Source: a virus. From it: 64,000 nucleotides of DNA. Below the pieces are notes generated by a model. It searched no databases, was not told where the DNA came from, and worked only from the letters and a program-made list of their open reading frames with translations. Positions 35,784 to 58,846 of this stretch are shown piece by piece; the stretch's first letter is position 1; each line of letters begins with the position of its first letter. The stretch spans positions 1 through 64,000 of IMG/VR virus record IMGVR_UViG_3300009448_000012; one strand, written 5' to 3'. Position numbers and translations under genes: made by a program.

Positions 35784-35942
35784 CACACATTCTCCATTTT
35801 GCGTTCCGGGGAACCCCGGACCGGATGGAACCAAGTCCACCAAGTAAGGCGTTGCTTGTTTCTTTGGCAGCTTTCCGTTCCAACGTTTGTTAGACTGCGC
35901 TTGGAACGGTAAAGGATCAGTGGGGCCTGTCTTCTGATTACT

Positions 35943-35971
35943 AATGTATGCTCACTTGTGCTCACCGTCAA
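35943..35971 (-). promoter_or_regulatory. Sigma70-type early promoter with spacer motif
   Basis: TTGACG-17 nt (GTGAGCACAAGTGAGCA)-TACATT. Confidence 0.75.
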
Positions 35972-36128
35972 TAGAAAAACGAACGATTTTTCATTAAATC
36001 GACGATTATTGTTCCGACGATGAACGTCCAGATGATCACAGCGGCGGCGATGCTTGATCGAACGTGTCTAGGCATTGATTAACCTTGGAAAATGGTCGTG
36101 CCGACCGATCATCGACACGACCCTGTGA

Positions 36129-42600: not shown

Positions 42601-45026
42601 CGTCGCACCGTTCGGCACGACACCGCGATCGGTCGCGATGGTGACGGCGTCGCGAACGGCGAGGTTGAACGTGTGGCTGAAACCGGTCGCGATCATGCGA
42701 TCGTCGACACCGACGATCGACCAGCGATACCAGCCGTGGAGCACGAAAATCCCGTGGCTCATTTCAGCTCACCGACATCGATCGAGACGACGCGCATACA
42801 CTCCAGCGCCTCGGCGTTGGCGCCCTTGGCTTGGAGCGCTTCGACCGTGGCGGCACATTCGGCCGCCGAGTGCATCCGCTCGAAGATGGGTCCGAAGCCG
42901 GCGATCTGACCGACCAGGAACCAGGATACCGTCAGGACGTGCATGGGCTAGGCTCCTTCATCGTTCAGCCGCTTGGCGACCGAGACCGCCGCGCTTTCGA
43001 ATTCATACCGGATGATCCGCTTCGTCCGACTGCTCAGATGCTTTTCATCGGTGAAGCGATTGACGACGTACCAGCGCCGCCCCTTCGACTTGCTCCGGTC
43101 GTATGCCGGGACCCATTTCACGCTGTTCGCGAAGGCGTCGTCGATCGCCGCCTTGTAGCTTTCGAGCATCTGACCGTGGCTGATCGTGTCCAGGCAATCG
43201 GCCTTGATGAACACAATGTCGAGTCGGTGTTTGAGGGTGCGAGCGTCGATCATTTGGCGGACACCTTCAGGGCGAATCGGATGTGGCGGGCATAGACCGC
43301 GACGGCTTTCCAGTAGGCGGCCATCGGCGCTTTATGCCTGACCCAACTGTGTTCGGCGGCCGCGCGGGCGTCCTGTGACAGCTCATATAGAAGCTGTTCT
43401 AGGGCGACGCGGGCTTCCGGCGGAAGCTCCGCGATCTTCTGTGCGGCCGGCAAGCGCAAGATCGGATTGCGCGTTTCGGGCTTCGTGCTGCGCGCGGTCA
43501 TTTCTTCCTCGCATTCAACTGGTCAGCGAAGCGCGCGGCGCCTTCCTCGGTCTTGTAGAGCACGGGCATCGCTCCACCGTCGCGGCGCGTCGTGCGGTTC
43601 CACGACCGGCCGTCAAGGTGCCGGATAGTCCATCGCTGGTTGTCCGGATTGAACACCGGGCGCCACGGCGTGAGCACGTCGAGCGCGGCCGGGATCTCGA
43701 CTTGCAATTCCTCGACCGTGTTCAAGCCGAAGTGAATCGCTAAATCATCCTCACCGGTCATCTTGTCGATCGCTTCGTATTTGGCGGTCAGCACGGCCGC
43801 GATCAGCGCGCGGACCTTCTCGATCTCGACCTTCATTTGGCTGTTCCTCTGGTCTCGGCGTGCCGTTCGCTGTTCAGTTCGTAGGCGCGGCGCTCGGCGG
43901 CTTCGTGCTTGCCGAACGTGATCGCCCTGGTCGACCCGCCCTTGGCCAAGCAGCCATAGAGCGCGCCGGTCGCGTGGTCGCGGATACCGAACCGGCCGCC
44001 GACCGTCTCGACTTTGAAGTCCTCGATCATGGTGAACTCGGCGCGGATCGCGTCGCCGATCTGATCGGCGATCCAGGCGTGATCGTCGACCATCGCCCGG
44101 AACAGATCCGGCGTTTCTTCGAGTTTTTCCATCGTGCGGTCGATCGCGGCGAGCGCGCGGGCAATGACGTCCTGTTCTTTCAGCATGGGATCACCGCCAG
44201 TAAGTCACGCCGTCGTCGCACAACCATCCGGTTTTGCCGGAGATCACGACCACGGACACAGGGTTCGTTCCGGACGGTGCGGACGGGTTCACCGTGACGC
44301 CGGTCGACCTGCTGGTCTTGCCGACGACGCGGCACGCGTGCTCGACCTTGAAGGCTTCCCATGTCTCGGTTTCTCGCGAGGACATGACGACAGCGACGAC
44401 GACGAACAGGACGACCGTCACGGAAAGGGCGACCAGCAAAGGCAACGTGTGATCTCTATTCGACATCGGACATCGCCTTTCTGATCGCTTCGTTCAGCGC
44501 GAACGCGCGGCGCTCGGCGGCCGCCTGGGTCTTGTAGTAAATCGGGTACCGCCGGCCGCCACGGCCGCGCGTCTGTTCGAGCACGGTCCCGTCGAGGTGT
44601 TCGACGACATACCGGCCGCCGTGGCTGTGCTTCGCGGTCCACAGGGCGCCGCGCTTGAATTCCTGGTTGACCTCGATCACCGCGCGTTCGCGCACCATCG
44701 CGGCGCCGGCGAGGATGCCGGCGATCGTCAGTTCGTTGTCCGGCGTTTCCTCGATCGTGGCTGCGTACTTTTCGACGAATTCCAGCGCGCGCAGCAACGC
44801 GGCGGTGACACGGTCGATCGTGTTCTGTTCGGTCATTGGGGAACCCCTAAGAGATGATTGCCAAGGTGATGATTAAGCCGGTCAGGATAATGGTCACGAA
44901 GATGATCGGACCCGCCCGGCGCTGGAGGTTGTAAGTCGCCTTGTACCGGCGCCACGGGTCCGAGAGGACGAACAGGGCGGCGCCGGCGAGGACCAACAAG
45001 GCGAGGGTTAGCGGTGTGATGGTCAC
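39622..45026 (-). other. Dense cluster of about 17 short, translationally coupled early genes
   Basis: Examples: 39622-40041, 40627-41022, 41019-41372, 41678-42037, 42948-43253, 43250-43501, 43498-43836, 43833-44186, 44191-44466, 44456-44836, 44847-45026. Confidence 0.65.
40223..40630 (-). CDS. Cro/XRE-like HTH protein
   Basis: SMTKWA.......VSDVLRGKRP......FGY. Confidence 0.7.
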   Translation of the reverse strand: MISEDEMRQIIRAGIAASGKSMTKWAVDNRMHAGDVSDVLRGKRPVTTNYATKFGYRAVRAFVKVEPGKPASVTIEDFDALIEQFREKMTDAGRAEITRRRADPRMLTDEAFLRNEISYWRDQWARAQALPERPA

Positions 45027-45030
45027 AGGT

Positions 45031-45636
45031 TCATTCCCCGCGCAGCCATTGACGGATCAAGTCCAGGTCGTCGAAGTCCTGGTCGTTCATCATGCAAATG
45101 ACGTCGAGCATGAACCGGACGTTCTCGCGCGACACCGGCTTGCCGGACGCAAAAAGAAAGCGGGACATGATCGCGGTCGCCTTGTCGAAAGTGCGAACCT
45201 TGGTTTCTTCGGTCACGGCCTCGGCGACCAGGGCTGACGACGCCTTCAGCGCGTCGACGACCGGCGCGGTCGGGCGCTGCTCGACCAGCTCGTGACGGTG
45301 GGCGACGTAATCCAGCATTTCTTGCTGGTACGCGCGCAGCTTGGGCGCGCGCGGCGTCGCCAGCGCGGCCGCTTCCTCGGCGGTGAGCTTCTTCCCGCTG
45401 ACGACCGCGTGTTCGGTCTTGTCGGCGTACAGAACGGGCGACATGCTGTACCGACCTTGCGGGTCGATTGCCTCGACGCCGTCGATCACGCGGATCGTGC
45501 GGCGGACTTCCTCGCCGCGAACCTTGATCCACACGCATTTGTCGGTGCGGCGGATGATCTCGAAAGCGAAGATGGTGTCATAGTCGGCGCTGGAGCGGGC
45601 GGCGTAGGACTGGCCGGGAACGAATTTGATGGTCAT
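45031..45636 (-). CDS. Hypothetical protein led by a repeat cassette
   Basis: ATG immediately follows AAGGGGTTCCCC. Confidence 0.7.
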   Translation of the reverse strand: MTIKFVPGQSYAARSSADYDTIFAFEIIRRTDKCVWIKVRGEEVRRTIRVIDGVEAIDPQGRYSMSPVLYADKTEHAVVSGKKLTAEEAAALATPRAPKLRAYQQEMLDYVAHRHELVEQRPTAPVVDALKASSALVAEAVTEETKVRTFDKATAIMSRFLFASGKPVSRENVRFMLDVICMMNDQDFDDLDLIRQWLRGE

Positions 45637-45915
45637 GACGGGGAACCCCTTGAGAGTGGCGGGCGCCGCGCGGGCGCCCTGGTTGGTGGTCAGTTCTTGC
45701 GGAAGCTGCGAACGATCTCGCGACGAAAACCGGGCGAAAGCTGGTGCCACTGATCCTCGGTCCCCGCGAACGCGCCAAGCGCGACGGCTTCGGCGTGGGT
45801 CGGCGTCGGGCTGGCAGGCTTCCATGCGTGATATCTGGCCATCTTGGGGAACCCCTTGAGAGAACCGGGCGACACCGCGCCGCCCGTGCTTTCGTTTCTA
45901 TAGGCTCACTCGTGC

Positions 45916-47334
45916 TCAGTCAAGCGGTATGTCACTAAATCGTTCCAGGGTGAGCGGGTCGACGTGCAAGTGATGTTGCGCCCTGGTGATCGCGACATAG
46001 AACAGCCGGCGTTCTTCCAAGCTGATGTTGGCGTCGTCGTCCTCGGCGTCGCCGCGCATGAAGTCGTCATTGATCGCCACGGAAGGCCATTCCAGCCCCT
46101 TGGCCTTGTGACCCGTGGCGAGCGTGACGCAACCTGTCACCGGCTTGTCGCGGATCTGCTCCAGGACCCGCCGGAGCTTGCTACAGCCGTATTTGCCGAC
46201 CAGATTGACGAAGACCTTCAGGGACGCCCCTTCGTCCGTGGCGGCGTATTCCTGGACCTTGCTCCAGGTCTCGAAACCAAGCAGCTCGCCGGCCTTGGGC
46301 AACCGGCCGTTCTGAAGCCCGTCCGCGTCGTCGACCAGCGCGCGCAGCTCGCCGGCGCCCTTGGGCGTGTAGACGATCCGGCCGGCGTCCAGATACCGGA
46401 AGGCGTTTTCGATCAGCCCGGTGTTCGTGCGGACCAGGACCGCGTCGACGCCGGCGGGACGACCGCCGCTGACGGTGTCACGAATGACGCTGTGACCATG
46501 AAGCGGGTACTTTTCGCCCATGGCGGTCAGCACGCCGTTCGCGGCGGCCGCGATCTGGTCGCCGAAGCGGAAGGACTTCGTCAGCCGGCATTCATGACCC
46601 GGCAAGATGGTCAGGGCGTCTTTGGCGCCGCGCCATGCATAGATCTGCTGATGACTGTCGCCGACCGCGATGATCTGGGCTTCCTGGTTCCGGATCACGC
46701 CGAGGACGACGCCGTTCGTGTCCTGGGCTTCGTCGACCAGGATGAAGTCGAACCGCAAGCGCGGATTGCTCAGCGCCCAAAGCTTCACGTATCCGTCGCC
46801 GCCCAAGGGCATGTCGTCCGCCGGGTCGGTCATGTGCGACCAGACGTCGGCGGCCGCGACCGGCGCCCATTTATAGAAGAATTCCTGGACCTCGGTCGTC
46901 ATGCCGGGCACGCGCGGAACAAAGAATTCCGTGATCGAGCGCGAATCGGACTGACAGAAACGGGTCAGCACGCTGGCGACGATCGACTTGAAGATGTCCG
47001 GGTTTACCGGAAGCTTGTCCTTGACGCATGAAATGTCGAAGCTCCAGGACTTCGGCGACTTGCGAAGCTTGCGTTCCGGGTCGAACCCGCGATCGGCGAC
47101 CGCGCGAAAGGCGAGGCTGTGCGTCGTGCGGCACTCGACGTTGTAGGGGAATTTCAGGCGGGCGTCGGTCGCAACCGACGTGTTGAACGCCATGTAAAGC
47201 CCGCGATAGGTCTTCATCTGGATCGCGAAATTCACAAGGGTCGAGGTCTTGCCGGCGCCGGCGAAGGCGATGAACTTCGTCGGGAGCCGCTTCATCGCAT
47301 AGTCGATCGCGTAACATTGTTCGGGCGTGAGCAT
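45916..47334 (-). CDS. UvrD/Rep-family SF1 helicase
   Basis: AFAGAGKT, DEAQD, GDSHQQIY.WRG, SFRFG, HKAKGLEW, EERRLFYVAITRA. Confidence 0.95.
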   Translation of the reverse strand: MLTPEQCYAIDYAMKRLPTKFIAFAGAGKTSTLVNFAIQMKTYRGLYMAFNTSVATDARLKFPYNVECRTTHSLAFRAVADRGFDPERKLRKSPKSWSFDISCVKDKLPVNPDIFKSIVASVLTRFCQSDSRSITEFFVPRVPGMTTEVQEFFYKWAPVAAADVWSHMTDPADDMPLGGDGYVKLWALSNPRLRFDFILVDEAQDTNGVVLGVIRNQEAQIIAVGDSHQQIYAWRGAKDALTILPGHECRLTKSFRFGDQIAAAANGVLTAMGEKYPLHGHSVIRDTVSGGRPAGVDAVLVRTNTGLIENAFRYLDAGRIVYTPKGAGELRALVDDADGLQNGRLPKAGELLGFETWSKVQEYAATDEGASLKVFVNLVGKYGCSKLRRVLEQIRDKPVTGCVTLATGHKAKGLEWPSVAINDDFMRGDAEDDDANISLEERRLFYVAITRAQHHLHVDPLTLERFSDIPLD

Positions 47335-47338
47335 GGCG

Positions 47339-50300
47339 CTAGACCTTCAGGAATTGAACGGGAAGCTCGGGATCATATGCAAGGATCTCGGTCACTTCCT
47401 TCGCGGTCAAAGGCTTGCCGTCCGTCTTGCCGTTCACCGCGACATATCCGCCGGCGATCTTGCTGGTCAACGTGCTGACATGGATCACGACGCTGATCGG
47501 ATAGGTCACGACGGGAAGGTTCGCGCGATAGACGACTTCGACCTTCAGTTCAGCTTTGTCGCGAAGCCCGGCGACATAGGTCTTGCATGCGACGAGCGTG
47601 GGGAATTTCGTGAACAGCTCGCGGGCGGCGTCTTCGCGCGTGTCATGCGCGGTGGAGCACACCGGACCGTCGCCGCGTATGATGGCTGAAGCAGTGAACA
47701 TGATGGGGAACCCCTTGAGAGTGGCGGGCGCCGCGCGGGCGCCCTGGTTGGTGGTCAGCGGGCGAAATGGGTCCAGTGTGCGTTCAGACGGTCGCGATCG
47801 GTTGCGCCGGCATAAAGGGAGTGGACACCGGTCGGACCGTACATCCGAAATTCGTTGTCACTTTTGCAGTAAATCAGCTTGCAAGTCCGGTCGGCGCTCA
47901 TGACGAAAGCACCGGACTTATTGAGAAGCTTCGCGAACTGTTGGGTCGTGATATTCATTTGGGGAACCCCTTGAGAGTGGCGGGCGGCTCGCGGCCGCCC
48001 TGGTTGGTGAATTATTTCCGAGGCGCTTTGATAGTGGCTTCAAGGGCGGCGATACGGCGGACCATTTCTTTTCTTGTTATCATGCCGTCCCGGTGGTGTT
48101 GCTTGGCGTCTTCGATGTACAGCTTGACTTCATCGTTCGTCATCTGGGGAACCCCTTGAGAGAACCGGGCGACACCGCGCCGCCCGTGCAACAAGTCATA
48201 AAGGCTCACTTGTGCTCAGTCAAGATTAAAAATCTTTTTAATTTTTCCAGGCGTTGAGCGCCGCGCGTGCGGCTGCTTCCCTGGTGGCGAAGCGGCGGAA
48301 ACCGCCGGAAATGGTCACAAGGTCCTGATAACTCGCACCGTCGAACTTCCACGCGGACCAGCGCTTGTTGCTTTTGACGCCGCTCGACCCGGCCGTCGAG
48401 ACGGTGACGGTGATGACCTTGTCGCCGTGACCCTTGATCACCGTCTTCCATTGCCGGGCGCTTGAACCTTGCAAGAACGTCTGACCGCCGATCTCGAAGC
48501 TTTCCAGCTTGGCGGCGCGGGTCGCTTCGTCGCGGGCGTCCGCTTGGGCGATGCGATGGTCGAGGTCGGTTTTGCCGGTGCTGTCGATCGGCAGGGCGCG
48601 CAGCTCGGCGGCGACGTTGCTGCCCAACGCAACACCGCGATGAACCGTCGCCTCGATCCGCATGTCGCCGACGCGGGCGAAGGCTTGCGTATACCGGATG
48701 ACGACGGGATGACGCTCCAGGCGGACCAGGATGTCGTCGAGGCATTCGCCCATGTTCAGCGCGAGCGCGAACACGCGATTGACGAAGCGGGTTTCGCGGG
48801 TCTCGCCGGCGTCGATCGCGTCGGCAAGTTCGGCGTTGGTCATGGTCTTGATCGGTTTGGTCATAGCGGGGAACCCCTTGAGAGTGGCGGGCGCCGGCGA
48901 TGCCGGGCGCCCTGGTTGGTGATCAGCGGCAGGACAGGACGAAGGCGAGAGCGGTCCTCGGCGACTTGGCTTGAACCCAGCCATTGTTACAGCGAAGGAC
49001 GCGGCGATCGTCGTCGTCGTAGCACAGATATAGGCCGTGCTCGTTGCAGGTCTTGAGCGCTTCGACGACCATGTTCCAAGATGTGGAGCGGCGGCGGAAT
49101 GTCATAACGGGGAACCCCTTGAGAGTGGTGGGCGCCGCGCGGGCGCCCTGGTTGGTGATTAGATCAGGCGAGATTCGACCCAATGGATTTCACCGAATGC
49201 GTCTTCGAAACGCCAAGCCATTTTAGAGGCTTCTGTTTCTGAAACGAAAGTCATGGGCGTGCGGTCTTGGTTGCAAACCAGCATGAATTTGTCGTTTTGC
49301 ATGAAACGGATGACGAAGATCATATCGGGGAACCCCTTGAGAGAACCGGGCGACACCGCGCCGCCCGTGCAACAAGTCATAAAGGCTCACTTGTGCTCAG
49401 TCAAGATTAAAAATCTTTTTAATTCACGACCCGGTATTCGAGGCGCGTCAACCATCCCGACATATCGGGAAATCCGTCCGGGTCGGTGTATCCGTCCAGC
49501 CCGATGAACCGGCTTTCGCCGGTGTGCTCGCCGGTCAGTTGGGTGATGTAAACGATCAAGCCTTCCTGGATCAGCATGAAGCCGACACCGTCTTTCGCGA
49601 GCACCGCCCTTGTGATCATGATGCTGAACCCTTTGGTTGAATGTTACCGGCGAACCGGCTTGCGTTTGGGAAGGTCCTCGACGATCTCGCGTTGCTCGCC
49701 GGGCAAGCCCGACCGGTTGTCGCTGTAGGCTTGCGCAAGCTCGCGCGTCTCGAAGCGCATGTGCGCGCCGCGATTGGCGATGAACCATTTCCACACGACC
49801 CGCCCTTCGAACCGGTACCGGATGCGGAAGCGGCGCGGACCGTCGTCGACCTTCTTCACCAGCCGACTGACGACCTCGAACAGCTCGGACAGGCGCGGGC
49901 ACATCGTCGGGCCGATCGGAAGCGCGACGATCTCGGCGAGCAGTTCGCGGGCTTCCTGCGCGGTCATGTCGACCTGGATTGCGTCGGTCATGACTGCTCC
50001 GCCTTCAGCTCGATGATCTCGAAATGGACGTCGGTGATCAGTTCTTGCATGTGATGGCGGATGCGCAGTTCGGCTGATGCGCGGGACGCGGCGAACTGCG
50101 CATAATGGCGGGTGACGCCTTGGGCGGTTTCGCCGACGATCAGCCACGCGAACGGGCGGATGCGGGCGGTTTCCTGATTCGGAATATTCAGGACGTGACC
50201 GGTCGTGAAGATGACTTGCTTCATGGGGGAACCCCTTGAGAGTGGCGGGCGCCGGCCGGAGCCGGGCGCCTTGGTTGCGGCCTAGTCGAGGATGAAGGTT

Positions 50301-51527
50301 TTCAGCCAAGCGGGGCCGTGCGAGTTGCGCAGGGCGTACACGACGGCTTCGGCGTCGGTGGTGGTGACGGCGCGTTCCCAAAGCTTGCGGATGTCGCGTT
50401 TCCAGTTGCGCGAGTCGCGAATGATGAAGGTCGTCAGGGCGGCTTTTTGCTCGGCGGTCAGCGGGGCGTGAGCCGCCTTGCGGCCCTTTCGGGCCGGTTT
50501 GGCGGGCTTGGCGGCCGGCGTGTCGTCGACGACCTCATAGGTCGTTCCGTCGCGGCTGGCGGCGACATAGGTCGCCATGCTGGCTTCAGCGCCGGCGCGG
50601 GTTTCGAAACGCGCATCCTGGTTGCTGCTACCGTTGCCGATGTGGAACGACCGGCCGTCCTTATAGGTGTACTTGATCCGGAAGGGCTGGCGGGCGGTCA
50701 GCTCGGCTTTCCACGCCTTGGCGTCGTGCTCGACGGTCGGGACGATCTCGATCGCGCCGTCCGTGGTCTTGCGAGCGGACTGCCATGCTGCGGCGGCTTT
50801 CTGTGCGAGGTCGTGACGGCTGCTGAAGCCGGTTTCAACCGCGTTGCCGTACTTGGGATGGTTGCTGACGGCTTTCCAGGCGAAGGCGAGCTTCATGGTC
50901 GTCGAGCGATGGACGAAGGAACCGTCCTTGAAGGTGGCGACCAGGGTGATTTTTTTGGCGGGCATTGGGGGAACCCCTTGAGAGAACCGGGCGACACCGC
51001 GCCGCCCGTGCAACAAGTCATAAAGGCTCACTTGTGCTCAGTCAACATTAAAAATCTTTTTAATTTTCGGGATCGCCGCGACGCTGGTTTCAGGGTGGAT
51101 CTTACGGAACTTGACCGCCGGCTTACGGACGTTGCGACCGTACTGGTCGACGATGGTCACGCCGGCGCGACCGCGCGATGCGTCGCGGATCTCGGTCAGG
51201 CTGGCGAACGCCTTGGGCTCGATCTCGCCGGTGCTGGTGTTCTTGACGCGGTATGTCATGGGGAACCCCTTGAGAGGGCGACCGTCAGGTCGCTGTGAGA
51301 GTGGTGGGCGCCCGGCACGGACCGTTTAGGCCGTGGTGCGAGCGCCCTGGTGACTAGCTGACTGCTTCGACCGAATAGATCACGTCCTTGTCGAGGTTGG
51401 CCATCTCGCACCGGACTGAGTAATTCTCGGCGGTGTGCCTCGTCAGCGGCTCGCCGCGCATGTTGGTCGTGGCGACGATCTCGACTTCGTTCGTGACCTT
51501 GTTCGTCTTAATGACTTGGTAGTTCAT
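47339..51527 (-). other. Cassette-borne small genes
   Basis: 47339-47704, 47755-47958, 48012-48143, 48238-48864, 48923-49105, 49159-49323, 49419-49619, 49644-49991, 49988-50224, 50282-50965, 51038-51259, 51354-51527. Confidence 0.75.
48146..48241 (-). promoter_or_regulatory. Promoter cassette; near-identical copies at 49327-49422 and 50968-51063, variant at 45846-45923
   Basis: TTAAAAAGATTTTTAA inverted repeat, TTGACT-17-TATGAC, hairpin, RBS. Confidence 0.8.
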
Positions 51528-51562
51528 GGCGCTTTCTCCAAAGCTTCGTTGCCGATGAACTG

Positions 51563-51591
51563 AACATAAGGCTCACTCGTGCTCACCGCAA
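51563..51591 (-). promoter_or_regulatory. Early promoter with spacer motif
   Basis: TTGCGG-17 nt (TGAGCACGAGTGAGCCT)-TATGTT. Confidence 0.7.
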
Positions 51592-51594
51592 GAC

Positions 51595-53655
51595 CTAAAA
51601 CAATAATTTATTGGTCTCGGCGATATAATGGTCGTAATCGATATCGGGAATGTGCTCGCCGTCATAAACGTCTTGTACCTTCACCTTGCGGGTATGGTGG
51701 AATTCGGCGTGTTCTTCGAATTCATATTTGTATTTGAAGCGCGGACCATGTTCGCCGCATTGCGAGCACCGAAAGTCGCCCTTGGGTCCGTAGCAGGTCG
51801 CCAGCAACTCGGCGAACAGCGCGAACCGGCGCCATTCGTCCGGCTTTTTCGCGGTGGGCGGCATCAGTTTGAAGATCGGCTGACCGGCCGGGCTCACGTA
51901 ATAGCGGGTTGTTTGCTGGCATTCGGTCCCGTCGCCGAGGATCAGCCGCGATTGCCCTGTGACCTTGGCGCGTGCGAGGAAGTCCCATTGGTCCGGGTGG
52001 CGGTGGATGAAGTCGGTCGGGTCATGATCATCACAAAGCGCCGCATCGGCCGCACGCGGGATCACCAACATCGAATGGTCCTTGTGCCACGCCTTTTGCT
52101 TGCCGACCTTCAGTTCGAAATCATAGGCGCCTTTGCGTTTCCGCTTGCCGGCTTCGTCCTTGTTGATCGCGTCCATGTTGTATTCGCCGATGTAGCTGTT
52201 CACATCGCGGATGAACATGCGCCCGTAATGCAGCTTCTCCAGCTTCATTTGCGTGACCGATTGCCACCAGTCGCACACCGCGTCGAACTGCGCGCGCATC
52301 ACGCGCGGAAACTTCAACGTCATGCCGTCCGTGTTGACCTGAAGGATCTCCAGGCTGGGCACGGCCGCCAGAAACCGTTCGGCCAGCATGACCAGCATGA
52401 GTTGCCCGTTCACCGTGATCGCCATGGTGTATTGCGGGTCGTAAAACGGTCCGTGCATGTTGTTCGAATCGCCGTAAACGCCGTTGTTCGCGAGCTTCAG
52501 CGCGTCGGACTTGACCATGTCCTTGATCGCCTTCGCCGCGACGCGTTGGGCTTTCAGCTCGCGATAGACCTCGACGAACAGCGGTCCGAGGTGGGCAGGG
52601 TACAAGCCCCATTCGATGGCGATCGAGGGATAGAAGGCTTCGACGTCGACGTCGACGATCTCGTAAATCGCGTCGGCGACGACCGCGCGCCGCGTCACCG
52701 ACCCGTGCAAGCCGCCCGTGCCGAACACCATCGTGAAGCCGTCGACGCTGGCCTTCAGGTTCTTGAAGACGCCCTTCGTCTCGACCTTGGCGGATTTCAG
52801 CTCGCCGGCTTCGATCTCCAGCGGGTTCAGCACCTTCGCCTTGAGCGTTTCGAGCACCGCGTTCGGTTCCGGATTGTCGAACCTGATCCACGGGAAGATC
52901 ACATCGGCAAGGGCGACGCTGTTCCGCCACGTCTGGCGCGGCTGGCGCCGGCCGTTGACCTTATCAAAGCAGATGCCGGGCGATCGTTCTTCGAGCGCTT
53001 TGGTGAAGAAGGATTTCCCGATTTTGGTGTCGTTATCGTTCAGATGACGTTCGCCGAGTTGTTCGCGAAACCCGATCATCTCCATCGTTTCCCAAGCGAA
53101 TTTCTTGGTACTGAACAGGTCGTTCCGGTTGTAGTCTAGACCGATATCCATTTCCGCATGCGTCAAGACCTTCGTATGATGGAAGGGCATTTCCTGGACG
53201 CGGCGGGCGCGCATGTTCATCTGAAGCGTCTTCAGGCTGGTCATGCGGTTCTTGTTGTCGAAATGGTGGATCAGCCGTAAGTCGACCTGCTTCACCAGTT
53301 CATCGCGATAGTGGACCCGGTGAATCCAGGACGGACCGCCTCGCTTGCCGTTCTCGATGATCTCGGTCGCGAACAGCTTCAGGTTCGCGCAGATCTGGAG
53401 CGCCGGCGTCCCGGCGTCGATCAGCTCGACCGCGCGGTGGATGATCGGATAGTCGAAACTGAGATTATTGAAGCCGTACATCCGGCGGAAATATCCGGAG
53501 CGCAGCACCGACACCATAAGAGGACCGTCGTTCCGGCGATCGCTGATTTCATAGATCCAGGTTGTATCGTCACCCTTGGTCAACGGGGTGAACCCTAGAC
53601 AGAACCAGTTCGGAAGGGTCTCGACGTCGCCGATGGTGTCGATCCATGCGTTCAT
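51595..53655 (-). CDS. DNA polymerase, family B
   Basis: Exo DVET and GFNN..FD; motif A DVEAFYPS; motif B KLANNGVYG; motif C NTDG. Confidence 0.93.
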   Translation of the reverse strand: MNAWIDTIGDVETLPNWFCLGFTPLTKGDDTTWIYEISDRRNDGPLMVSVLRSGYFRRMYGFNNLSFDYPIIHRAVELIDAGTPALQICANLKLFATEIIENGKRGGPSWIHRVHYRDELVKQVDLRLIHHFDNKNRMTSLKTLQMNMRARRVQEMPFHHTKVLTHAEMDIGLDYNRNDLFSTKKFAWETMEMIGFREQLGERHLNDNDTKIGKSFFTKALEERSPGICFDKVNGRRQPRQTWRNSVALADVIFPWIRFDNPEPNAVLETLKAKVLNPLEIEAGELKSAKVETKGVFKNLKASVDGFTMVFGTGGLHGSVTRRAVVADAIYEIVDVDVEAFYPSIAIEWGLYPAHLGPLFVEVYRELKAQRVAAKAIKDMVKSDALKLANNGVYGDSNNMHGPFYDPQYTMAITVNGQLMLVMLAERFLAAVPSLEILQVNTDGMTLKFPRVMRAQFDAVCDWWQSVTQMKLEKLHYGRMFIRDVNSYIGEYNMDAINKDEAGKRKRKGAYDFELKVGKQKAWHKDHSMLVIPRAADAALCDDHDPTDFIHRHPDQWDFLARAKVTGQSRLILGDGTECQQTTRYYVSPAGQPIFKLMPPTAKKPDEWRRFALFAELLATCYGPKGDFRCSQCGEHGPRFKYKYEFEEHAEFHHTRKVKVQDVYDGEHIPDIDYDHYIAETNKLLF

Positions 53656-53999
53656 ATGCGGGTCCTGGTCCTGGTTCGCGGGATGGTGCAGCGCATGCGC
53701 ATATACAGGGCGTCGAGCGCCGCTTGCGGGTCGGTGGGTAGCTCGCCGGTGATGTCCCGGATCATGCGCATCGCCGAGCACTGGCGCAAGGTGATCTCGA
53801 CGGCGCCGTGTGCGATCGCGGCCGCGCGCTTGGTCATGGCGACGTCGTAGTGATCGCCCTGGTACCAGTGCCGCGCCACGCCGATCGCGGCCGCCATGGC
53901 GTGCAATTCACCCTCGGTCGTCGCGATCATGTGCGACATGCGCATGCCGCGAAAGCGACCCATATCCGACCGGTGCATGTCGTCGACGAAGACCGTCAC
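53652..53999 (-). CDS. DUF4031-family protein
   Basis: VFVDD, MSHMIA..E.ELHAMA..IG...WYQGDHYD. Confidence 0.85.
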   Translation of the reverse strand: MTVFVDDMHRSDMGRFRGMRMSHMIATTEGELHAMAAAIGVARHWYQGDHYDVAMTKRAAAIAHGAVEITLRQCSAMRMIRDITGELPTDPQAALDALYMRMRCTIPRTRTRTRI

Positions 54000-58766: not shown

Positions 58767-58846
58767 AGGGGAACCCCTTTAGGGCGCTAGGGCCAGAGAT
58801 GGCGGGACGGTCGCGGCGACCGCCCGCTGTTGCATGCGAGGCGAGA

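Follow-up and report, generated by a model that had tools for sequence, protein, structure and literature searches.

A family of hairpin and ribosome-binding cassettes at accessory gene starts in the replication arm of an uncultured phage

How can a phage supply a succession of small accessory genes, mostly unrelated to one another, with the signals for their expression? The question is raised by an uncultured phage known from a groundwater metagenome assembly, IMG/VR virus record IMGVR_UViG_3300009448_000012 (74,557 bp; 91% complete by CheckV; hereafter G000). In its first 64 kb, the stretch analysed here and called the window, eleven genes each start immediately behind a copy of the same repeat, in which a GC-rich hairpin precedes an invariant ribosome-binding box. 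We find that these repeats form a real, well-defined and previously undescribed family of cassettes, which have a regular position relative to stop and start codons and a hairpin that is kept through base changes, and whose box and geometry recur in a second phage.

A ribosome-binding box repeated ahead of accessory genes

The most constant part of the repeat is a 17-mer, CTCTCAAGGGGTTCCCC. Its 11 exact copies lie between 45640 and 51276 and are without exception on the minus strand, whereas shuffled sequences lead one to expect 0.12 copies; one further copy, with two mismatches, lies at 58768. The 11-nt core of the 17-mer, AGGGGTTCCCC, has 13 copies in the full record, from 44.8 to 58.8 kb, if partial copies at 44838 and 58768 are included, and a search of the whole record found neither AGGGGTTCCCC nor CTCTCAAGGGGTTCCCC on the plus strand. 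All 13 cores stand 0-3 nt ahead of an ATG that opens an open reading frame (ORF), and AAGGGG within the cassette boxes, 6-9 nt before the start, could plausibly serve as the Shine-Dalgarno sequence. A preliminary description of this DNA had counted eleven genes headed by the 17-mer and the same two partial copies, and all of these were located by sequence count. Cassette genes are separated by spacers of 57-94 nt that are wholly filled by the cassette; the other genes of the same arm use AAGGA- or GAGGA-type sites, and most overlap their neighbour by 4 nt. The box marks accessory ORFans only, and never the genes for the polymerase, helicase, SSB or exonuclease.

Elsewhere, neither a similarity search of the phage database nor searches of IMG/VR and Rfam returned the exact 17-mer, and among 185,579 species genomes it gave 23 isolated single matches and no array. 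Rfam had no match at gathering score across the window, and none on the cassettes (44700-51700) at E values up to 10. The pattern AGGGGTTCCCC-N0-3-ATG returned only single chance hits among the IMG/VR matches listed, and a covariance model (R1) found no further copies in G000, in the related contig G001 described below or in nine more distant loci. Three of the 23 species-genome matches, in Phenylobacterium (L309:5467, L312, L322), are a single orthologous site at which the reverse complement of the 17-mer stands just ahead of an EIIA(Man)-like gene (MIGLVIVTHG...); they are probably a coincidence, because their orientation is opposite to that of the phage copies. Caulobacterales are a reasonable guess for the host.

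The full units are of two types, and the division drawn in the preliminary description, four type A copies with a promoter and seven type B copies mostly placed directly after a stop codon, is plain in the sequence. The type A copies (boxes at 50968, 49327, 48146 and 45846) read, in order, TTGACT, a 17-nt spacer with GAGCACAAGTGAGCC, TATGAC, 8 nt, a hairpin, GTT and the box. Their promoter is TTGACT-N17-TATGAC in three copies and has TAGAAA as its -10 in the copy at 45846, and their hairpin has 8 bp (CGGGCGGC/GTCGCCCG), one of them a G-U pair. An AT-rich palindromic block, ATTAAAAAGATTTTTAAT, opens three of the four copies and contains or abuts the upstream stop codon. These three are near-identical over ~100 nt: cassette 1 (50968..51067, hairpin 50988-51008, box CTCTCAAGGGGTTCCCC), which has the stop codon of the preceding gene, c1, inside the unit and heads c2 (50965-50282, 227 aa); cassette 2 (49327..49426), which heads c4 (49323-49159, 54 aa); and cassette 3 (48146..48245), which heads c7 (48143-48012, 43 aa) and shares with cassette 1 a run of 78 identical nt downstream of one single-nucleotide polymorphism. 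Cassette 4 (45846..45924) has no AT-rich block. It follows directly on the helicase stop codon with TTGACT-17-TAGAAA, 8 nt and the same hairpin and box, and heads c10 (45842-45690, 50 aa). All of these units, and those that follow, are on the minus strand.

Type B copies are promoter-less and begin 0-2 nt after the preceding stop codon. Five of the seven read stop-(0-2 nt)-CACCAACCA-hairpin-(G/A)CCA-box, and the standard form, with CACCAACCA, a 7-bp GGGCGCC/GGCGCCC hairpin, (G/A)CCA and the box, is found at 49109, 47705 and 45640. The first of these (49109..49158; stop-TCACCAACCA, then ACCA after the stem) heads c5 (49105-48923, 60 aa); the second (47705..47754) heads c9 (47701-47339, 120 aa), after which the helicase gene follows with no cassette; and the third (45640..45689), identical to the second, heads c11 (45636-45031, 201 aa). 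The unit at 47961..48011 carries a compensatory stem variant, GGGCGGC/GCCGCCC, ahead of c8 (47958-47755, 67 aa). In two other copies the stem is lengthened through loop insertions: that at 48868..48922, ahead of c6 (48864-48238, 208 aa), has a hairpin extended to 10 bp with a bulge (-20.4 kcal/mol), and that at 50226..50281, ahead of c3 (50224-49988, 78 aa), has an extended bulged hairpin and reads CGCAACCAA. The last is composite (51260..51353), running from CACCA through a long hairpin (51299-51347, -29.8 kcal/mol) and ACCA-CTCTCA to a second hairpin, GCGACC/GGTCGC, and the box, and heads c1 (51259-51038, 73 aa); this unit resembles a scar left when two units were rearranged.

Around these complete units lie several reduced ones. 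Downstream of c3 are two genes without a full cassette (49991-49644 and 49619-49419), the second of which has a degenerate, hairpin-less leader, CAACCAAAGGGTTC. The diverged outlying copy (58768..58830) consists of an 11-bp bulged hairpin, CATCTCT, a 12-nt insert and CTAAAGGGGTTCCCC-T-ATG, and heads a 133-aa ORF (58766-58365), and the partial copy at 44838..44854 is a box only, TCTCTTAGGGGTTCCCC-A-ATG, with no hairpin, ahead of a 126-aa ORF (44836-44456). The array itself opens with a promoter just after the DNA polymerase stop codon (51550..51592, TTGCGG-17-TATGTT, same spacer box), which lacks a hairpin, is followed by an ordinary Shine-Dalgarno sequence, GGAGAAAG, and heads a 57-aa ORF (51527-51354).

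What do the cassettes carry? None of the 11 cassette genes or the partial-copy genes matched a Pfam family or a PHROG of known function, and the suggestion that they serve anti-defence or host takeover is thus an unsupported guess. In a profile search, the only domain shared among them (E = 1e-4) was a small one (RF.I.Y...RFETR..A) in residues 95-156 of c2 and residues 55-114 of the cassette-less gene n_49991 (49644-49991, minus strand). The cargo genes are otherwise unrelated to each other, and the repeats are therefore not a by-product of gene duplication. Separately, the Atlas model covering residues 1-82 of c2 is similar to WGR-domain proteins of 85 aa (TM 0.77 by target), a similarity that is a lead only.

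In its gene content, G000 reads as a siphovirus-like genome with a T7-like replication module. Plus-strand genes for the terminase, tape measure and tail proteins fill ~1-35 kb, and a minus-strand arm running from ~65 kb down to 36 kb carries the T7-like replication set, in which a family-A DNA polymerase (51595-53781) and a UvrD-like helicase (45916-47334) are accompanied by a gp2.5-like SSB and an exonuclease. The phage database contained no close relative among cultured phages, its best helicase match being 38% identical. The cassette array lies inside this module, between the DNA polymerase and the helicase and extending beyond the latter, and because of this setting the label of early genes, which these genes had been given, is unproven.

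Hairpins, promoters and a second phage

Folding gives, for every full copy, a GC hairpin with 6-16 bp that ends 8-11 nt ahead of AGGGG, and it recovered all of the stems that had been listed before. Folding energies range from -10 to -30 kcal/mol and z-scores from -1.5 to -4.5, values as modest as one expects because the pieces are short and GC-rich. More telling is an alignment of seven stems, six from the window and one from the contig G001, which comprises 7 pairs and 49 cells: all 49 cells hold standard pairs, versus 42-61% when the partners are slid by 1-3 columns. Two of the pairs change on both sides, one from C-G to U-A and the other among C-G, G-C, G-U and A-U. The earlier claim that the hairpin is kept through base changes is thereby supported and now also extends across two phages. 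In the sense RNA the wobbles are G-U pairs; the antisense RNA would have C-A mismatches in their place, and we therefore argue that it is the sense transcript that folds. Loop insertions lengthen the stem and do not keep the spacing of half-sites. On these patterns we consider a structure in the sense transcript more likely than a palindrome to which proteins bind in the DNA. The evidence for pairing is good, not overwhelming, because the sample is small, with five distinct stems here and one elsewhere.

G001, an IMG/VR contig of 34.7 kb whose helicase is 59% identical, is the closest relative that we compared; it lacks the interval from polymerase to helicase because the contig begins inside the helicase gene. 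Downstream of the helicase, G001 has two small ORFs and then a type-A-like cassette: TTGACG-17-TATGAA, 9 nt, the 7-bp stem GGGTGAC-atggt-GTCACCC, ACTTTCAC, AGGGGTTCCCC, ATC and ATG. The AGGGGTTCCCC box is identical to that of G000 at 11 of 11 positions, the stem differs by two compensatory pair changes, and 9 nt separate the -10 from the stem, versus 8 nt in G000. This conserved distance would put a normal transcription start 1-2 nt ahead of the first paired base. The G001 cassette heads a homolog of c11 (39% identity over 82 aa), a gene that is headed by a type B unit in G000. Thus the order is helicase-[A]-c10-[B]-c11 in G000 and helicase-2 ORFs-[A']-c11 homolog in G001, where c10 (50 aa) and many other accessory genes of the G000 arm are missing. 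It follows that cassette-linked gene content differs and that the same gene can carry either cassette type. The preliminary description had made variable content among relatives a check on its interpretation, and gene content beside the cassettes does indeed differ between these two phages.

Helicase homologs at 60-64% identity (P0002-P0012), which mark the phages in which the array between polymerase and helicase is most to be expected, occur on contigs up to 73 kb. More distant relatives, with helicases at most 46% identical, have no such array. IMG/VR scans with the helicase alone or with P0011 gave no match, a metagenome scan with a helicase alignment gave only distant relatives of at most 38% identity among the matches listed, and a search with a structural-protein alignment gave only a G001 sibling covering the structural genes and distant phages without the box. 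Logan contigs break at each cassette. One Logan contig, from a second groundwater run, X2 (~3x; depth 3.6), joins 48145 to 50968 and so skips 2822 bp (c2 to c6), with the junction inside the 78 nt common to two type A cassettes; the joint may be a deletion variant or a low-coverage assembly artefact.

The type A promoters have features of their own, which we record as side observations. Six minus-strand promoters have their -35/-10 spacer occupied by an operator-like box, (T)GAGCACRAGTGAGC (35949-35963, 45903-45917, 48203-48217, 49384-49398, 51025-51039 and 51570-51584), and this box occurs once in inverted, plus-strand orientation in a divergent region ahead of a 302-aa ORF (G000 65239-65253; L284:3240-3254). 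The G001 promoter has a different, phage-specific repeat in its spacer, with a 10-bp period (TATGAACCGCTATGAACC, versus TGAGCACAAGTGAGCC in G000), a pattern that suggests a phage-specific regulator co-varying with its spacer-box sites. Just upstream of the -35 in three type A promoters stands a perfect AT palindrome, ATTAAAAA-GA-TTTTTAAT (51046-51067, 49405-49426 and 48224-48245, minus strand), with the upstream stop codon in or beside it; it may act as an UP-element-like sequence or be recognised by a dimeric protein. The promoter at 35963 (35860-35975, minus strand) and two G001 promoters (L009 5389-5436 and 5638-5685) share the -10 and the initial transcribed sequence TAnATTAGTAATCAGA, and the ~800 nt without a convincing ORF that follow the promoter at 35963 may be a conserved leader or a small RNA.

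A further repeat in the window, the 12-mer ATGGTCACAGGG, is strand-polarised, with 18 matches at up to 1 mismatch, against 0.17 expected, 15 of which are on the minus strand (for example 1409, 16918, 24730, 26713, 30010, 32475, 37985 and 39935). It occurs window-wide, sits in genes of both orientations and recurs in G001 (L009 1111, 3444, 2636, 4584, 5110 and 9153), often overlapping ATG starts. It is a polar DNA signal unrelated to the cassettes.

What the cassettes may do

The explanation that we favour, and consider probable, is that the repeats are portable expression cassettes, each a package of promoter, mRNA-protecting hairpin and standard ribosome-binding site, and that they are also substrates for recombination. 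They would be encoded in DNA and act mainly in mRNA. Type A would be the complete unit, with its AT-rich block, sigma-70-type promoter, operator-like spacer box, hairpin and ribosome-binding region, and we infer that its promoter is active and starts transcription 1-2 nt ahead of the 8-bp GC hairpin. Ten nt beyond the hairpin comes the presumed ribosome-binding region, CUCUCAAGGGGUUCCCC, in which AAGGGG would act as Shine-Dalgarno sequence 6-9 nt before the AUG and provide a fixed, moderately strong site of initiation. The 5'-terminal hairpin would stabilise the type A transcript by shielding it from 5'-end-dependent decay, as such hairpins are known to do in ompA-type leaders. In type B, the hairpin after the stop codon would separate cistrons and act as a barrier to 3' exonucleases, and the unit would give the next gene a stand-alone initiation site that does not depend on translational coupling.

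The repeats, at 50 nt for type B and 78-100 nt for type A, are amply long for homologous recombination. Recombination between near-identical copies of 50-100 nt would allow single accessory genes to be lost, gained or re-headed. It would account for the composite unit at 51260-51353, for the degenerate leader before 49619 and for the arrangement A-c10-B-c11 in one phage versus A'-c11 in the other, and we infer that it is the cause of the differing gene content.

Several points weigh against this explanation. First, the comparison across phages rests on the single G001 copy, and recent duplication or gene conversion, and not selection, could be the reason why copies in a single genome are near-identical. 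Second, a consensus promoter scanner calls none of the type A promoters; it misses them because the -10, TATGAC, is without the usual T at position 6. Third, the window was found in two groundwater DNA sequencing runs and in no RNA run. Fourth, predicted accessibility of the initiation region is 0.53 for the cassettes and 0.45 for other arm genes. Since the two are alike, we claim neither occlusion nor insulation of the start, and the idea that the Shine-Dalgarno sequence self-pairs within GGGG-TT-CCCC, where at most a 3-bp hairpin with a 4-nt loop can form, finds no support. Finally, the pyrimidine-rich TTCCCC, which makes a less than ideal spacer, is invariant across two phages and neither Shine-Dalgarno pairing nor stability accounts for that, which hints at a trans-acting reader of the box.

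Such a reader is the core of the strongest alternative, in which the 17-nt box would be an operator, with the hairpin as part of the site, for a phage or host RNA-binding protein or nuclease that switches the accessory genes on or off jointly at the level of translation. Phage T4 offers examples in RegA, a repressor, and RegB, which cleaves Shine-Dalgarno sequences of early mRNAs. In line with a factor of this kind, TTCCCC cannot pair with the 3' end of 16S rRNA, the anti-Shine-Dalgarno sequence, AGGGGTTCCCC is identical at every position in phages with 59%-identical helicases and wholly different promoter boxes, and the box stands only at accessory ORFans. The same idea was proposed for the motif GGGATAGGAGCCC by the authors who described start-associated sequences (SAS) in Cluster K mycobacteriophages (PMC3203893). 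However, no RegA-family match was obtained, in a search whose control was silent, no RNA-binding domain was detected among the proteins scanned, and a complementary RNA is not encoded elsewhere, the plus strand having zero copies. We regard the operator as a possible but doubtful alternative, one that can coexist with the expression-cassette explanation.

A bolder combination is unlikely: the box GGGGUUCCCC would be a private initiation signal whose reader is a phage or host factor and not the anti-Shine-Dalgarno sequence alone, convergent with the GGG...CCC SAS of Cluster K, and type B would in addition be a mimic of the tRNA acceptor at which RNase P cuts the operon RNA into monocistronic mRNAs whose 5' ends are protected, the whole making up one phage-encoded system. 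If true, newly acquired genes would receive from that system a ready-made context for processing, stability and translation.

Cleavage by RNase P taken by itself is improbable too. The type B hairpin would resemble a tRNA acceptor minihelix, and host RNase P would cut between CCA and GGG to yield monocistronic mRNAs with paired 5' ends like those of type A. Six of the seven type B units do read stem-(G or A)-CCA, and units that follow a promoter differ after the stem, with GGTT in type A or ACTT in G001; these 4 nt are the main difference between types B and A. The basic stem has exactly 7 bp, with a G1-C72-like closing pair, a purine discriminator and a single-stranded 5' leader, features that together with RCCA typify tRNA acceptor ends and RNase P model substrates, and two copies are extended to 10-11 bp, near the 12-bp acceptor and T-stem of model substrates. 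Bacterial RNase P cleaves model hairpin substrates and uses pairing between RCCA and P15 (PMC11143913; PMC12710915). However, RCCA also fits the C/A-rich style of both flanks (CACCAACCA ... CCACTCTCAA), it counts as a single observation because all type B copies descend from one ancestor, and it is missing from the diverged copy at 58768 and from the second hairpin of the composite unit. There is no T-loop, the CCA is internal rather than 3'-terminal, and ARAGORN and Rfam detect nothing tRNA-like. Processing within the A/C-rich stretch, another suggestion of the preliminary description, finds no support: CACCAACCA contains no U, and RNase E prefers A/U-rich sites.

Could the hairpins act on transcription instead, as partial terminators or attenuators that grade expression, or as antitermination sites made of a hairpin and a boxA-like element? 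The order of hairpin and CUCUCAA resembles boxB-boxA of rrn leaders, CUCUCAA itself is boxA-like when set beside lambda CGCUCUUAA, and the type A hairpin is followed by GUUCUCUC, with 4 U in 8 nt. The stem-loops of promoter-early stem-loop cassettes (PeSLs) of T4-type phages have been shown to terminate (PMC2839356). However, no U-tract is present and a terminator scan calls no cassette hairpin, and whereas the PeSL stem-loop overlaps the promoter, the hairpin here lies downstream of the predicted start; with its stem after that start and no U-tract, a PeSL-like terminator role is unlikely. Moreover, with eleven sites spread over 5.7 kb and every one fixed at 0-3 nt from its ATG, translation fits better than antitermination. 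We therefore give an action on transcription very little credence.

Least credible of all is that the repeats are DNA-level sites without any role in RNA, whether integron-like recombination sites, protein-binding palindromes or gene-converted leftovers of tandem duplication: the units hold single genes in one orientation, each bounded by an imperfect palindrome, the copies are near-identical within one genome, and the X2 contig is joined inside a shared repeat, but that joint could be an assembly artefact at ~3x depth, no tyrosine recombinase (PF00589) is present in the 91%-complete genome (the search control was positive in 14 of 14 genomes), G-T is tolerated in the sense strand only, loop insertions act on stem length and not on half-site spacing, and neutrality is hard to square with a Shine-Dalgarno sequence kept 6-9 nt from the ATG and with the conservation seen in a diverged phage.

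Some established classes of element were considered and rejected. Integron attC cassettes are out for want of PF00589 and in view of the flanks, ACCAAC/GTTCCCC versus the attC core RYYYAAC/GTTRRRY. RNase III sites need a ~20 bp imperfect duplex, versus stems of 6-11 bp here, with only that at 51299-51347 reaching ~16 bp. A CRISPR-like array does not fit, the spacers being coding genes, and neither do N4-type hairpin promoters, in view of the 5-nt loops and of the sigma-70-type -35 and -10 elements.

Relation to known start-linked repeats

The preliminary description named PeSLs and SAS as conceptual analogues, and by part list and layout these are the right comparison. PeSLs, found in T4-type myoviruses (PMC2839356; Comeau et al. 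2014, PMC4122927), are made up of an upstream stop codon in an AT-rich region, -35 and -10 elements, a stem-loop, a Shine-Dalgarno sequence and an ATG, and their recombination has been demonstrated (Arbiol et al. 2010, PMC2839356). Type A units share this part list, with putative -35 and -10 elements, and the order of the ends, with the upstream stop codon in an AT-rich block in three of four type A copies and the Shine-Dalgarno sequence and start at the 3' end in all copies. As with PeSLs, many copies cluster around small ORFans, the genes found at the cassettes vary from one relative to another, and the repeats are long enough for homologous recombination, a role that the two systems probably share. 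The differences are equally clear. PeSLs reside in T4-like myoviruses, whereas the present genome is siphovirus-like, with a T7-like polymerase, SSB and exonuclease and a tape-measure protein. The PeSL stem-loop lies between or over the promoter hexamers as a terminator, whereas here the stem stands 8-9 nt past the -10, in the leader. Furthermore, the promoter-less type B accounts for most copies here and PeSLs have no promoter-less form, and the ribosome-binding region is an invariant 17-mer here and an ordinary Shine-Dalgarno sequence in PeSLs.

With SAS the likeness is closest at the ribosome-binding box. Both are short, asymmetric motifs that contain a Shine-Dalgarno sequence and end in a G-run and a C-run, GGGATAGGAGCCC in SAS and GGGGTTCCCC here, and both stand a few nt before a start that is almost always ATG, at 11-19 copies per genome, in one orientation and in the non-structural arm only. 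In both, positions unable to pair with 16S rRNA are still conserved. An inverted repeat lies upstream in a subset of SAS, as the extended start-associated sequence (ESAS), and in all full copies here. On the other hand, SAS is a 13-bp motif, GGGATAGGAGCCC (at most 2 mismatches), unrelated to CTCTCAAGGGGTTCCCC, and a putative promoter belongs to four of the present units. The inverted repeats of ESAS are imperfect and 17 bp long, and the way they vary gives no support to RNA pairing, whereas the stems here, of 7-11 bp, are always paired and show compensatory changes. ESAS have been interpreted as protein-binding DNA sites (PMC3203893), and the function of SAS and ESAS was still untested 14 years after their description (PMC3203893; 2025 survey PMC12699233). 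We conclude that the array functions like the PeSL and SAS systems but is a member of neither family.

Less specific parallels exist for the hairpin alone. Phage T7 has RNase III sites in its early region and 5' stem-loops on its late mRNAs, that is, inter-gene and 5'-end hairpins that are thought to set mRNA ends and stability. As in T7, hairpins here stand between consecutive genes of one transcription unit and at promoter-proximal 5' ends; T7 RNase III sites require a duplex of ~20 bp, whereas the stems here have 7-11 bp, with the composite at 51299-51347 nearing 16 bp. The E. coli ompA leader has a 5'-terminal stabilising stem-loop, and REP elements and the Rhodobacter puf operon have intercistronic stabiliser hairpins. 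The array resembles these in having a stable hairpin 1-2 nt from the predicted 5' end in type A and hairpins after the stop codon in type B, and differs from them in its fused, invariant ribosome-binding box, which those single host loci or genome-wide repeats lack.

Repeated start-linked cassettes have so far been described only as PeSLs in T4-like phages and as SAS and ESAS in Cluster K mycobacteriophages. The present array is a third, unrelated example, for which a genuine RNA hairpin is better supported, and a cleaner one, with an invariant box, maintained pairing and forms with and without a promoter, and a second phage keeps the box and geometry while the promoter operator changes. Units of 50-100 nt are compact, synthesisable pieces with which mRNA stabilisation, factor recruitment or RNase P cleavage could be tested. 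Small accessory genes are abundant in phages and their turnover drives adaptation to hosts, yet how such genes come to be expressed on arrival is poorly understood. The finding points to start-associated cassettes as a strategy of phages in general, and not a peculiarity of two lineages.

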